From a virus, in the IMG/VR virus record IMGVR_UViG_3300020204_004581: a DNA stretch of 64,000 nucleotides; one strand, 5' to 3'. Both the position numbers and the translations under genes were made by a program. The notes beneath the pieces were generated by a model that made no database searches, was not told the origin of the DNA, and saw only the letters and a list, made by a program, of their open reading frames with translations. Shown in pieces: positions 4,355-60,390 of the stretch. The stretch's first letter is position 1. The number at the start of each line of letters is the position of its first letter.

Positions 4355-4651
4355 ATGGCAGATTTACCATTAGATTTTAGTCAAGACGTTAATAATCAAC
4401 TGACAGCTATCGCAGATCTTGAAAGAAAAAAACTTATAACAAAAAATGACTACGACGGGGAAAAAGTAATTTACTCAGTCAACAGTCCCAATGCAATAGC
4501 AGATGGGGATGATTTGGGTAGGGGTACAGGTATTTTTCTTGATGTATACAATGAAAATGCTGGAACGGGAATAGATGTCAACGAAAGAAAGAATGAAATC
4601 AAGATTAACAAATACAATTCATCTAAACCTTATCCTAACTTTGCAATTTGA
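4355..4651 (+). CDS. Hypothetical protein
   Basis: 98-aa ORF, tightly packed with its neighbours. Confidence 0.7.
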   Translation: MADLPLDFSQDVNNQLTAIADLERKKLITKNDYDGEKVIYSVNSPNAIADGDDLGRGTGIFLDVYNENAGTGIDVNERKNEIKINKYNSSKPYPNFAI

Positions 4652-5037
4652 TGAAACTTCAGGAATCTCTCAAACAACTAATTGTAGAGATTGCTTCTGT
4701 TGACAGTGTCATTGACTCTATAAAAAAAAGACAGAAATGTATAATCTACTATGATGGTGATGAACCTGGTGGTAGAGGTTTGCGTCAAATTGAACCTGTT
4801 TGTTTAGGTCGAATGAAAGGAACTAATAACCTAGCATTGAGAGCTTGGGATGAGGAGGGGGCTTCGTTCACAGGGTATAAGGGAGAGCAACCTTTACCTG
4901 GTTGGAGAATTTTTAGATTGGATAAGATACTTTCTCTGAAACCGACAGGAGAAATATTCAATACACCAAAACCAAACTTCAATCCAAATGGTGACAAATC
5001 TATGAGTAGTATTATTATTATTGTAAAATTTAATTAA
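4648..5037 (+). CDS. Stand-alone WYL domain protein
   Basis: IYY...GLRQIEPVCLG...LRAWD...WRIFRLDKI matches the WYL pattern (R.IEP..L, W/Y-L-x-A-W, R.FRLDRI). No HTH present. Confidence 0.75.
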   Translation: MMKLQESLKQLIVEIASVDSVIDSIKKRQKCIIYYDGDEPGGRGLRQIEPVCLGRMKGTNNLALRAWDEEGASFTGYKGEQPLPGWRIFRLDKILSLKPTGEIFNTPKPNFNPNGDKSMSSIIIIVKFN

Positions 5038-5038
5038 T

Positions 5039-5572
5039 ATGAGTGACCTAATGCAAAAATTAATGATTTCAAAAGCCATAATAGATAAACATAATCAAAT
5101 ACCACGTGGACAGAAATCAACAGAAACACCCAATATAAACTTACAAGAGTTCAATAGACCACAAGCAAAATATAATATTCCTCAGAGTTTAATGTCTGAG
5201 TCTGTGATTGAAAATACTAAGCCGGTTGGTGATACTACAGTGGAGGCAATTAAAAAATCTAAACTACCTGATTCAATAAAAAAATTGATGATGGAAAACC
5301 CGATTGTACAACCACAACAATCATCCCCTGTTTTATCTAATGAACTTATCGAAAAGGCCTCAAGATTGATGCCGACAGTATCCGAAACTATATCTACACA
5401 AAACATAGACCTAACTCCCCTCAACAAACTCGTAAAAGAAGCCGTTAATGAAGCTTTAAGAGAAAATGGTTTGTTAGTCGAAGGAACTGAAAAAACAAAT
5501 GAAATTTTTTCTTTCAGGGTAGGGAGCCATATTTTCGAGGGAAAAGTTACAAAAGTTAAAAAAATCAAATAA
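5039..5572 (+). CDS. Hypothetical protein
   Basis: 177-aa ORF at the end of the operon. Confidence 0.7.
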   Translation: MSDLMQKLMISKAIIDKHNQIPRGQKSTETPNINLQEFNRPQAKYNIPQSLMSESVIENTKPVGDTTVEAIKKSKLPDSIKKLMMENPIVQPQQSSPVLSNELIEKASRLMPTVSETISTQNIDLTPLNKLVKEAVNEALRENGLLVEGTEKTNEIFSFRVGSHIFEGKVTKVKKIK

Positions 5573-5625
5573 CAACTTTCTTTAATCAGGACAAAAGATT
5601 ATACTTTACGGAGTAAAATTATAAT

Positions 5626-58016: not shown

Positions 58017-58541
58017 ATGCACAAATTTACCATCATCTTACAAGGACGTGGATCCGAAATAAATCAACACAGAATTAATCCTCAAGAAAGGTCAAAATTA
58101 GAACACTTGAATTTACACGAGTGTATTTTGGAAGATGTCGCAGATATATTAGATGTTGAAACAGATCAGCTGATTTCTGGCGAATCCCCAATAATTGGTG
58201 CTATTCCCGAAAACTCTGAAATTACAGTATTTGATGAACAAAACGGAACCATATACAAAGAGGAAGTACAGAATATATTGTTTCAAGAATTAAATCATCC
58301 TGACTCAGAAATGTTCGAAATTTATAATCACGATACGGTTTATGCTGAGGACCATGTAAAAGGACAATTTTTCGAAATTGATGTCGCCGATCAGGAACCT
58401 TTTAATATTTCAAATCTAAAAATAAACATTACCGATATTGAAGGTGAGGACTACGTAACGTCGATTCAATATAAAAATTTCGATTTTTCGTTTGGTGATT
58501 ACCGAAGTAAGGGGGTACATTTTTTCTTGAGCAATGAGTAA
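58017..58541 (+). CDS. Acidic hypothetical protein
   Basis: Start moved to ATG 58017 (MHKFTII), because the upstream part of the track ORF is the degenerate tRNA. Confidence 0.7.
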   Translation: MHKFTIILQGRGSEINQHRINPQERSKLEHLNLHECILEDVADILDVETDQLISGESPIIGAIPENSEITVFDEQNGTIYKEEVQNILFQELNHPDSEMFEIYNHDTVYAEDHVKGQFFEIDVADQEPFNISNLKINITDIEGEDYVTSIQYKNFDFSFGDYRSKGVHFFLSNE

Positions 58542-58926
58542 AACAATTAAAAATCCAACGTTATTTGTCGACATTGATGGTACATTAGTTCAATATCGTA
58601 AGTTTAGTGAACTTTCAACAGCTGTATTAACACCAATTCAAGAAGTCATTGACACAGTAAACAATTATTATGATGAAGGTGCTGTTGTTGTTATCACCAC
58701 TGCTCGTCCAAGTACTTATGAACTATTTACAAAACAAGAGTTGGAAAAACTTGGTGTAAAGTATCATCAACTTGTGATGAACTTGGGAAGGGGTACAAGA
58801 GTAATCTTAAACGATAAGGATCCAGAAAATCCTGAACTTCCGAGAGCCCTTGGTATAAATTTGAACAGGGATCGGGGGTGGGAGGGACTTGATATATCTG
58901 AATTAGTAAATTCCTACGAAGTTTAA
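58534..58926 (+). CDS. HAD-superfamily phosphatase (capless)
   Basis: FVDIDGTL, ITTAR and LND motifs. Confidence 0.8.
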   Translation: MSKTIKNPTLFVDIDGTLVQYRKFSELSTAVLTPIQEVIDTVNNYYDEGAVVVITTARPSTYELFTKQELEKLGVKYHQLVMNLGRGTRVILNDKDPENPELPRALGINLNRDRGWEGLDISELVNSYEV

Positions 58927-59147
58927 TGGTACAGAGTAGAAGACACGTTGCAAAAACTATAAGTTATCGTATAATCAGCACGTTAATAGGATTTATCATA
59001 ATGTGGTTTGCAACAGGATCTGTCAAAGTTGGTGCAGCATTCAGCGTCATAGAGTTACTTTATAAACCAATCCAATATTACATACACGAACGGGTTTGGT
59101 ACAAATACATCAAATATGGTTTGGATAAAAAGAATGAGGCCGAATAA
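58926..59147 (+). CDS. DUF2061-like small membrane protein
   Basis: RH.AKTISYRI...YY.HERVW pattern. Confidence 0.75.
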   Translation: MVQSRRHVAKTISYRIISTLIGFIIMWFATGSVKVGAAFSVIELLYKPIQYYIHERVWYKYIKYGLDKKNEAE

Positions 59148-59184
59148 TAAGTAGGTTTTTTCTTTTAATGGGTATTTATGGTAT

Positions 59185-60390
59185 ATGAAAAAGGTTATAA
59201 ATGAGGTTGTACTTTCCTCACCCCTTGATAACACATCTGTAAATTCAAAGTTTGGACCAAGATGGGGTAGAAACCATAATGGTGTTGACTTAGCGGCTAA
59301 TGCAGCAAACGTTAAATCTCCTCTTGATGGTGTTGTAGAGGTTGGAGAAATTAGAAACGATAGTTGTGGTGGTACAATTATTATAACTCATCCTGATGGA
59401 TTCAAAACAGGATATTGTCACATGCAAAAAATAAATGTTAGACAAGGACAAAAAGTTAGAAAGGGTGATATCATTGGGGTAAGTGGTGGTGGTGCGAATG
59501 ATCCAGGTAGAGGTAGAAGTGATGGCCGACATTTACATTTCTCACTAAAAAAAGATGGTAAATTCGTTGACCCAATGCAATATATCGATAAGGTAAATGT
59601 AAGTTCTTCTGATATTTCATTATCAGGTGCGACGCCATCTGACGATAGTGGTAAAACAAATTGGGATGATTTTTTCAGTGGAAAATTTTCTAACAGAAAT
59701 ATCAAAGATATATCACAAAGGGATAAAGATCCAATATTACAAGGCATATTAGAGCCTTTAAAAAACGCCACCATTTTACAATTCGAACATAGAGATTTTA
59801 TAACACCGATCAATGAAGATTATGAACTTTCAAACGGAAGATATATTTCTAGTTTGGAGTATACAATTTCCCAAGGAAAAAAGGTGTTAAACCCCGATAT
59901 CGGTAAAGTGGTCGATATCAGTGATAAAAATAATTGCAAAAATTCAATAACTGTTCAACATGCAATCGATAAGAAAACCTATTATACTGAGTTTTGTTCT
60001 GTAGAAAATATCAAAGTAAGGGCGGGTCAAAATATACCAAAAAATAAAGTTTTGGGTATTGCTGGACAAAATACTATTGTCAGAATTTTGGATAGATCTA
60101 AAACAATAATGAGCTTTAAACAGTTTGAAGATGAGTCGAAGGAAAAAGATCCTAATAAACCAAAAGATAAACCAAGTTTAGATTCTAGAAAGGACCCTAT
60201 TTTGGATTTGTTAACTAACCCACTTAGATCATTAGATTTTGATTCAAAAAATACGAAAACCGTATCAATGAATGATAAGGTTAAAAGTTACGGTTGGGTT
60301 GATTGGTTGAGTAAGAATACTGTTAGTAAAAATGAATCGATTCAAGAAAATATTTCACGATTCAAAAGTTTGATGGGTATTATAACTTAA
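59185..60390 (+). CDS. M23 family peptidoglycan endopeptidase with a second, degenerate M23-like domain
   Basis: HNGVD, YCHM and HLHF motifs; the second repeat (TEFCSV..I.V.AGQ.I) lacks Zn ligands. Confidence 0.88.
   Translation: MKKVINEVVLSSPLDNTSVNSKFGPRWGRNHNGVDLAANAANVKSPLDGVVEVGEIRNDSCGGTIIITHPDGFKTGYCHMQKINVRQGQKVRKGDIIGVSGGGANDPGRGRSDGRHLHFSLKKDGKFVDPMQYIDKVNVSSSDISLSGATPSDDSGKTNWDDFFSGKFSNRNIKDISQRDKDPILQGILEPLKNATILQFEHRDFITPINEDYELSNGRYISSLEYTISQGKKVLNPDIGKVVDISDKNNCKNSITVQHAIDKKTYYTEFCSVENIKVRAGQNIPKNKVLGIAGQNTIVRILDRSKTIMSFKQFEDESKEKDPNKPKDKPSLDSRKDPILDLLTNPLRSLDFDSKNTKTVSMNDKVKSYGWVDWLSKNTVSKNESIQENISRFKSLMGIIT

Follow-up and report, generated by a model that had tools for sequence, protein, structure and literature searches.

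Head module and two peptide motifs at protein ends

We analyzed a 64,000-nucleotide window (bases 68475-132474) of a 149-kb viral contig from IMG/VR (record IMGVR_UViG_3300020204_004581; CheckV completeness estimate, 49%) for peptide motifs, here called tags A and B, that recur at the ends of otherwise unrelated proteins in and around a T4-type head module. Matches to Pfam and PHROG place this head module on the minus strand of the window, as follows (aa, amino acids):

29465..31267, minus strand: major capsid protein (MCP), gp23 type (PF07068, 1e-70)
31297-32937, minus strand: protein in the scaffold position (T4 gp22), 546 aa
33576..34292, minus strand: prohead protease, T4 gp21 type (Peptidase_S77; PF03420, 4.7e-25; phrog_207, 3.5e-45)
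35759-37591, minus strand: portal, gp20 type
37629-39386, minus strand: large terminase

A match to phrog_213 (5.8e-69) further supports a head set of the gp23/gp20/gp21 type. The gp21-type (S77) protease that an initial annotation, made from the sequence alone, had assigned to this gp23/gp20-type module is indeed encoded there: the alignment of the 33576 product to T4 gp21 (PDB 5jbl, 2.4e-15) shows the catalytic His (in ELNHP) and Ser (in SSRG) at the expected positions, and the enzyme is apparently active. In the MCP, the first ~30 residues are invariant among relatives with an overall MCP identity of 75-95%. MCP residue 70 aligns with residue 26 of T4 gp23*, and the equivalent of the gp23 cleavage site lies near MCP residue 45, so that any propeptide has at most about 45 aa; the candidate cleavage sites L-L-E6 and I-K-E23 would leave at most a short one.

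A bS21 gene (PF01165, 6e-10) lies antisense within the head module at 34857-35042 (plus strand). On this basis we place the phage among the bS21 phages of Chen et al. (2022), which come from freshwater and probably have Bacteroidota hosts, and for which transcript data were given (PMC9723584). It is a giant freshwater phage of a bS21-encoding lineage that probably infects Bacteroidota and has a T4-type head. The closest isolates have an MCP identity of just 42-44%, and no isolated phage was matched when the head module was searched by megablast. Relatives in IMG/VR number in the hundreds (at least 598 MCP-positive contigs) and include one complete genome (G001, 293,850 bp).

Homologues drawn from 80 MCP-centered loci were compared, and this comparison revealed conserved motifs longer than a tripeptide. 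Tag A, of about 15 residues, reads [TSN]-E-S-x-L-x-x-[IL]-[IV]-K-K-V-[LI]-x-E. The core of tag B reads [ED]-x-[ILV]-x-R-[IMF]-K-x-L-M, with the fuller form E-x-I-x-R-I-K-x-L-M-G. With proteins named after one coordinate of their gene, tag A is present at the start of the 25783 protein and at the end of the 27381 protein, whereas tag B closes the scaffold-position, 35039, 59185 (M23 peptidase) and 3890 proteins and opens the 28171 and 41885 proteins. The tags, leaders and related segments considered in the window are listed below, with bit scores where given.

4310..4348, plus strand: tag B at the C-terminus of a 138-153-aa protein (gene 3890-4351); 14.2 bits, top tag B match
4651..4689, plus strand: 13-residue N-terminal helix of a small WYL-like protein (gene 4651-5037); doubtful as a tag (1.6 bits, tag A)
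25783..25851, plus strand: 23-residue N-terminal tag A leader of a 155-aa protein (gene 25783-26250); 23.9 bits, best tag A match
26692..26733, minus strand: tag A near the C-terminus of the 27381 protein; 19.2 bits
27361..27381, minus strand: 7-residue leader ending in L-N-E of a 235-aa Cys-rich basic protein (gene 26674-27381), from the homologue alignment
29302..29397, minus strand: 32-residue leader, tag B followed by Y-L-[IL]-x-E, of a 408-aa protein (gene 28171-29397) downstream of the MCP; 8.8 and 6.8 bits
31300..31341, minus strand: tag B at the extreme C-terminus of the scaffold-position protein; 12.2 and 14.4 bits
35042..35083, minus strand: tag B at the C-terminus of a 232-aa protein (gene 35039-35743); 13.6 and 12.3 bits
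40680..40700, minus strand: 7-residue leader of a 435-aa acidic-tailed protein (gene 39393-40700), upstream of the large terminase
40706..40750, minus strand: tag-A-like C-terminal helix of a 268-aa protein (gene 40703-41527); weak, below the profile threshold
43160..43270, minus strand: 37-residue leader, tag B (D-K-I-K-R-I-M-E-I) followed by I-N-E, of a 461-aa protein (gene 41885-43270); weak score, 1.3 bits
44756..44791, minus strand: tag-A-like helix ending in L-Q-E at a domain junction of a 668-aa fusion (gene 43523-45529)
55591..55620, plus strand: 10-residue start of a 497-aa protein (gene 55591-57084); unsupported as a tag
59185..59205, plus strand: 7-residue leader ending in I-N-E of an M23 peptidase (gene 59185-60390), directly before the M23 domain
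60343..60387, plus strand: tag B at the C-terminus of the same M23 peptidase; 13.8 bits

Distribution and conservation of the tags

Profiles of both tags were scanned against the contig of the window and four related contigs (940 open reading frames [ORFs] in 527 families). Matches were called terminal when they lay at most 30 residues from the N-terminus or at most 12 from the C-terminus, zones that hold 16% of all residues, and reversed and shuffled sequences served as decoys. The tag B seed profile, built from seven instances, gave 23 matches of at least 4 bits, 21 of them terminal, in 10 families, against three matches in reversed and one in shuffled decoys; it also picked up unrelated proteins of the relatives that open with the tag. 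After one iteration all 25 matches of at least 6 bits were terminal (13 families, none in decoys), a proportion inflated by the training of this profile on terminal matches only. For tag A, whose iterated profile was trained on instances at any position, there were 25 matches of at least 10 bits, 21 of them terminal, in 17 families and again none in decoys. Altogether 30 of the 527 families, with unrelated bodies, are tagged. An all-against-all BLASTP of the contig proteins found no common terminal segments, the motifs being too short for it. In Pfam and PHROG the tagged bodies are unnamed except for M23, PG-binding and NTase-like domains.

The initial annotation had proposed that short leaders ending in (I/L)xE on unrelated late proteins form a modular capsid-cargo tag. 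Every peptide it quoted is present at its ORF, and longer motifs do lie among the peptides it listed, but the bare tripeptide did not hold as the criterion. In the window, [IL].E occurs within the first 25 residues of 29 of 74 proteins, against 19.6 +/- 3.4 in random internal stretches, and a frequency of 24% is expected within 25 residues. Across the whole contig the bare motif did not differ in frequency between genes headed directly by TATTTAT and others (Fisher p 0.5-1.0), with p 0.06-0.15 after operon extension. In the five genomes [IL].E is enriched 1.4- to 1.6-fold at N-termini; since control tripeptides behave alike (0.8- to 1.9-fold for such as [IL]NQ, [IL]NK and [FYW]NE; 0.6- to 1.9-fold overall, most 1.3- to 1.9-fold), this enrichment is mostly a matter of composition. 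Counted per protein, [IL].E or [IL]NE was neither in excess in the scaffold-position protein nor depleted in the capsid protein. Taking into account this background frequency, the absence of a late-versus-other difference and the behavior of the controls, one might attribute the whole pattern to I/L-x-E strings expected by chance in a proteome rich in Lys, Glu, Ile and Leu. Such an explanation covers the bare tripeptide only: the profiles of 12-15 columns have no decoy matches at their thresholds, a strong terminal bias and motifs that are conserved in homologues. For tags A and B chance is refuted, and as an account of the system as a whole we regard it as very improbable; it accounts best for examples that lack support, 55591 among them.

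The tags are concentrated in the head region, where 7 of 20 families are tagged, compared with 1 of 35 in the tail, baseplate and fiber region (p 0.002), a 60-kb region that is likewise late; elsewhere the count is 22 of 472. Unrelated proteins do have in common, as first suggested, modular terminal peptides that end in hydrophobic-x-Glu and are enriched in the head module. What had been taken for a short leader is really a helix of 12-23 residues in two sequence classes. Nor is it an N-terminal element only: about half of the scoring tags of the window are C-terminal or at junctions, the N-terminal cases being 25783, 28171 and 41885, and cleavage after Glu at a C-terminal tag would leave the tag on. 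Outside the window, the G001 genome has two stretches, at about 2-28 kb and 288-292 kb, in which small ORFs of 58-250 aa form arrays and nearly all open with tag A or B; these arrays resemble the hypervariable internal-protein loci of T-even phages.

The signal is one of peptide rather than nucleic acid sequence. Many tagged ORFs open with M-K-K, and bS21, encoded here in the head module, has been proposed by Chen et al. to favor late phage transcripts (PMC9723584), so that the N-terminal likeness might reflect a nucleic-acid or translation-initiation signal (e.g., one linked to bS21) or a recently copied DNA cassette. In a comparison of eleven tag A leaders, pairs of identical residues had the same codon in 52% of cases, and codon usage alone predicts 51%. 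Synonymous sites are thus fully randomized, and it is the peptide, rather than DNA or RNA, on which selection has acted. The same peptides also occur at C-termini and internal junctions, and an explanation at the nucleic acid level, largely refuted by these data, is in our view extremely improbable.

The late-promoter-like TATTTAT motif, claimed at first by inspection, proved real in a shuffle test: TATTTATA has 16 copies in the window against 6.4 +/- 2.6 in shuffles, and each of the 16 lies at most 55 nucleotides upstream of an ORF on the same strand. TATTTAT lies directly upstream of 24 of 44 tagged genes, against a background of 210 of 940 (22%), and the late-type motif also precedes tail and baseplate genes elsewhere on the contig. 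The copies of TATTTATA are:

27392..27399, minus strand: late-promoter-like box
3060, 20261, 29401, 32961, 33316, 34302, 35751 and 37620, strand of the ORF downstream: further boxes
43491, 45534, 50700, 51383, 54713, 55579 and 57345, strand of the ORF downstream: further boxes

One box lies 22 nucleotides upstream of the gene at 51412-54699 (plus strand), where the local GC content is raised. Its 1095-aa product has a signal peptide, a CarboxypepD_reg domain and a large outer-membrane beta-barrel (PF13620, PF25183) and resembles a TonB-dependent receptor, which is an unusual gene for a phage. Eight tRNA genes are found at 55471, 57621, 57930, 61278, 61357, 61484, 63515 and 63619, and among them, at 60741-61265 (minus strand), lies a gene with a HAD domain as in "Swiss Army Knife" RNA repair proteins (PF18143, 2.3e-19).

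Conservation of the single tags was followed in the homologues of each protein. First, 75 homologues of the scaffold-position protein retain the C-terminus P-Q-F-L-R-[IM]-K-D-L-M-x-K, although identity in the body falls to about 40%, and an invariant L-I-E stands 7 residues before tag B. The 35039 protein, which sits between portal and protease in the position of T4 gp67/gp68, ends in N-F-[LV]-[RK]-[LI]-K-x-L-E-x-S-I, kept in 31 homologues down to 30% identity. A matrix made from the scaffold C-termini alone ranked the 35039 protein third and the M23 C-terminus 19th, a marginal result from one genome (p about 0.05). The C-terminal tail of the protease, S-[IV]-D-L-M-K-K-L, is kept in four genomes and looks like tag B by eye, yet it has no match to the tag B profile.

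Short peptides at either chain end are what AAA+ machines typically recognize, and the tags could be signals for another phage factor, such as a ClpB/ClpC-type AAA+ unfoldase or Hsp20, in chaperoning or timed degradation. A ClpB/ClpC-type double-AAA+ gene (46733-48742, plus strand) and an Hsp20-like gene (46143-46538, minus strand) do flank the head module at its edge, and the phage has a transfer-messenger RNA gene (50769-51189, plus strand) whose tag peptide has a VVAA end. The presence of the tag on scaffold- and core-position proteins, together with protease-type sites after the tags, fits head assembly better, and we consider signals of this kind quite improbable.

Second, the proteins with N-terminal tag B have a putative cut site after the tag. 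In 16 homologues the leader of the 28171 protein reads M-I-K-Q..[DE]-E..R-I-L-x-L-H-E-x-A-T-K-N-x-Y-L-I-x-E-Q. The 41885 leader, despite its weak score, is found again in about 15 homologues with identities as low as 43%; after the tag, all have N-E, and P3 is mostly I or V. Six of eight families with N-terminal tag B have [LIMV]-x-E at most 16 residues after the tag, compared with 29% at control positions (p 0.009), and tag A itself ends in [VI]-[LI]-x-E. The tag-bearing residues 4-45 of the 41885 protein also match Pfam ImmE5 (colicin E5 immunity protein; 5e-5), just below the gathering score. For the 28171 protein, an origin as a gp24-like vertex paralogue was considered and rejected, as hhalign against the MCP family showed no relation.

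Third, tag A was followed in the 25783 and 27381 families. The 25783 leader recurs in 41 homologues; between it and a conserved N-Y-M-F-F-S-N-L body lies a linker that differs in length. Residues 107-149 of this protein form a Cys-rich C-terminal motif (Y-P-S-A-Y-A-N-G-Y-A-V..C-K-G). In TBLASTN this motif alone was matched, in pelagiphage and cyanopodovirus records and once beside a scaffolding gene; the search found no isolate with proteomics. In the 27381 protein, tag A is kept in relatives as [NK]-E-[SG]-[LIV]..[LI]-I-[KR]-K-V-L-[KR]-E, and some relatives have an extra domain of ~50 aa after it, which makes the tag an internal junction. The N-terminal leader of this family (27 sequences) varies in length and sequence, whereas Glu7 never changes and has I or L at P3 throughout; A/T-T-G/S comes next. 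Glu121 does not vary either and directly precedes an invariant, very basic four-Cys domain (residues 122-216; W-F-G-T-K-K-K...P-W-V-N-I-C...H-P-P-C-G-R...Y-P-K-C-R-A...A-C), which is itself preceded by a hypervariable acidic half. The protein is possibly a zinc-binding, DNA-associated internal head protein. In an AlphaFold2 model residues 220-232 are helical after a disordered linker, the tag spanning residues 217-230, and the leader is disordered.

The remaining leaders are of mixed standing. In the 39393 family (about 25 homologues) the preceding residues vary, whereas [IVL]-[KRNQ]-E followed by Q/A is kept, with one shifted exception. The 40703 protein has, besides its tag-A-like C-terminal helix, an N-proximal [TS]-E-S-Q-I..L-H-x-K-[LM]-[IV]-x-E, and both segments are kept in about 12 homologues. 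Tag B of the 3890 protein is kept in all five genomes, in an operon headed by the TATTTATA box at 3060. Several peptides named in the initial annotation stood up well, namely the leaders of the 25783 and 28171 proteins, the C-termini of the 27381 and 59185 proteins and the 43523 junction, which all score with profiles free of decoy matches. The short leaders of 27381, 39393, 59185 and the MCP are not tag-like, but they keep hydrophobic-x-Glu in homologues while the rest varies. Those of 4651 (there given at 4648) and 55591 are conserved without qualifying as tags. The former, M-K-L..L-K-x-L-I-x-E, is kept in five genomes, and the WYL label of its protein is a sub-threshold match to PF13280 (E 0.014; 15.8 bits, the cut-off being 21.8), although it covers positions 4-69 of the 70 in the profile. 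The latter, [IL]-[LI]-x-E-G-R-K-E-D-L, is kept in three homologues, matches no profile and may simply be part of the fold.

Movement of the tags and proposed head loading

The M23 peptidases and their fusions show that the tags are movable modules, placed at the N-terminus, the C-terminus or a junction. The M23 domain of the 59185 protein (PF01551, 1.4e-32) starts at residue 30. Its homologues have leaders of about 29, 30 or 147 residues, all of which, like the 7-residue leader here, keep hydrophobic-x-Glu (L-N-E, L-L-E or L-H-E) immediately before the catalytic domain. Tag B is C-terminal in the diverged homologues from G004 and G005, N-terminal in L087/L088 and at both ends in G001. In L085, the linkers between M23 domains repeat a module with an [LM]-N-E end, and the helix that precedes an M23 domain of the 43523 type ends in I-L-K-E.

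The 43523 protein joins NTase-like, M23 and PG-binding domains. Its motif had been noted at a domain junction, and it is located exactly where separate genes of the relatives are fused: G001, G004, G005 and L144-146 encode the first ~245 residues on their own, in a gene ending at the junction helix, after which the M23 and PG-binding part starts. In fused relatives the helix reads E-S-I-[IA]-K-[FY]-L-[QN]-E. Tag A is found at junctions in 43523, in G002, where the 25783-type tag lies internally between two fused bodies, and in L078/L052/L076.

Being amphipathic helices rich in K, E, I and L in an AT-rich genome, the tags might instead be generic oligomerization or coiled-coil elements with no common receptor and no part in encapsidation, the closing Glu reflecting a preference at helix ends. 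The scaffold-position, 41885 and 39393 proteins are of similar composition and coiled-coil-like, and the C-terminal tags have no consistent upstream cut site. That generic helices from 30 unrelated families should fall into the same sequence classes, lie nearly always at chain ends, have no match in decoys and change terminus between homologues is hardly to be expected. Tail proteins oligomerize too, yet tags are rare there, and an invariant Glu with I/L at P3 beside highly variable leaders is hard to explain in this way. We therefore consider generic helices unlikely.

The motifs are a conserved, modular system of peptide tags, and their most likely role is head loading and processing by the protease. 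With moderate confidence we interpret tags A and B as an extended capsid-targeting system of the T4 type that loads proteins into the head. From the observed motifs, their terminal placement, modularity, conservation at the protein level and association with the head module and the late promoter, we infer binding, encapsidation, cleavage and injection along the following lines. During prohead assembly, the tags would all bind one partner, which may be the scaffold core or else the capsid protein by its invariant N-arm, and the tagged proteins would become enclosed. The gp21-type protease would then cut after the Glu of hydrophobic-x-Glu, often [LI]-N-E, removing N-terminal tags and short leaders and separating fused modules; C-terminal tags may stay on or be cut upstream. 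Some of the cargo (M23 peptidases and basic DNA-binding-like proteins) would exit the head with the DNA. Of the cargo tagging first proposed, the shared peptides are supported, while packaging, processing by the 33576 protease and injection are putative.

Since the scaffold-position protein ends in tag B, the partner of the tags is suggested to be that of the scaffold C-terminus. By analogy with the P22 scaffold and the HK97 protease tail, this partner may be the capsid protein, at its inner face or N-arm. The invariance of the ~30 N-terminal MCP residues is the sole, indirect hint of docking at the N-arm. A more specific version, which we put forward only tentatively, is that tag B copies the capsid-binding C-terminal helix of the scaffold, so that cargo would enter from either end as a pseudo-scaffold on the capsid N-arm, with the [LI]-N-E code deciding which pieces are freed.

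Several points weigh against head loading by tags. The bare (I/L)xE motif failed to discriminate late genes, its frequency in non-late genes being nearly the same. C-terminal tags have no consistent hydrophobic-x-Glu upstream, the L-I-E of the scaffold-position protein excepted, and what precedes them (N-E-S, K-N-E) may cap the helix instead of marking a site of cleavage. It should be noted that, besides the terminal training of the iterated tag B profile, homologues across five genomes are not independent, for which reason counts per family are also given, and that about nine window proteins hold a scoring tag. Confidence in the model of the 27381 protein is low (predicted local distance difference test, pLDDT, 54), too low for a fold search, and only its secondary-structure layout was used. 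The T4 targeting sequence is presumably a 10-residue peptide ending in I-A-E, in which case the tags are like it only in the closing motif. Finally, the lineage is uncultured, and the tags are described here from sequence.

Provided that the tags do direct head loading, sequence alone would reveal which proteins abundant uncultured freshwater phages package and probably inject. In the five genomes this set would comprise about 30 families, most of unknown function, and would provide a list of candidates for anti-defense proteins and proteins that breach the cell wall. The capsid-targeting principle of T4 would then be old and flexible, working from either end, held in common with the scaffold and jointing polyproteins, which bears on how the contents of the prohead core are recognized and on phage capsids engineered as protein carriers. 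Should the pseudo-scaffold version be true, cargo loading would be bidirectional and programmable and would mark the whole injected proteome of the lineage.

Comparison with known systems

Encapsulins load unrelated cargo into an HK97-fold shell by means of short terminal peptides, usually C-terminal and sometimes N-terminal. The likeness to the tags is one of analogy only, namely short terminal loading peptides on unrelated cargo; encapsulins are non-viral and operate without a protease step or DNA packaging.

The C-terminal tail of the HK97 maturation protease and the coat-binding C-terminal helix-turn-helix of the P22 scaffold dock internal proteins inside the procapsid; the former was reportedly characterized as a targeting tail by Duda, Oh and Hendrix in 2013. 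The scaffold-position protein described here likewise ends in a conserved basic amphipathic helix, and the protease has a C-terminal tail that is conserved in four genomes. In HK97 and P22 the docking element is known on one protein only, whereas here it is on many unrelated proteins and at the N-terminus too.

In phiKZ-like phages (SPN3US, phiKZ, 201phi2-1), propeptides are mostly longer than 100 residues and protein-specific, with A/S/G-x-E at the cut site; they are thought to target proteins into the prohead, and many head-internal and ejection proteins are processed (PMC5694885, PMC7411985). Their protease belongs to a related family and cuts after Glu. They have no shared short tag, whereas the leaders described here are short (7-37 residues) and shared, with I/L/V at P3, and do not include long protein-specific propeptides.

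The capsid-targeting sequence (CTS) of T4 internal proteins (IPs) is said to go back to Mullaney and Black in 1996. A leader of about 10 residues is common to otherwise unrelated internal proteins of T4; it sends foreign proteins as well as IPs into the core, and gp21 cuts it off, T4 propeptides being of 10-20 residues and the related proteases cutting after Glu (PMC9958956, PMC5694885, PMC12373910). As on IPI-III and Alt, and with the short propeptide of gp24, the tagged proteins go with a head of the gp23/gp20/gp21 type and carry, on unrelated bodies, a short N-terminal peptide ending in hydrophobic-x-Glu, the cut motif of S77 proteases. In both, cargo genes vary between relatives and are partly clustered, and the expected fate is loading with the scaffold core, trimming and, for some proteins, injection. 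The tags differ from the T4 CTS in their length (12-23 residues against about 10) and in their two classes. They are also not strictly N-terminal, C-termini and junctions being as frequent, and they are carried by scaffold- and core-position proteins and by large enzymes (M23) as well as by small proteins.

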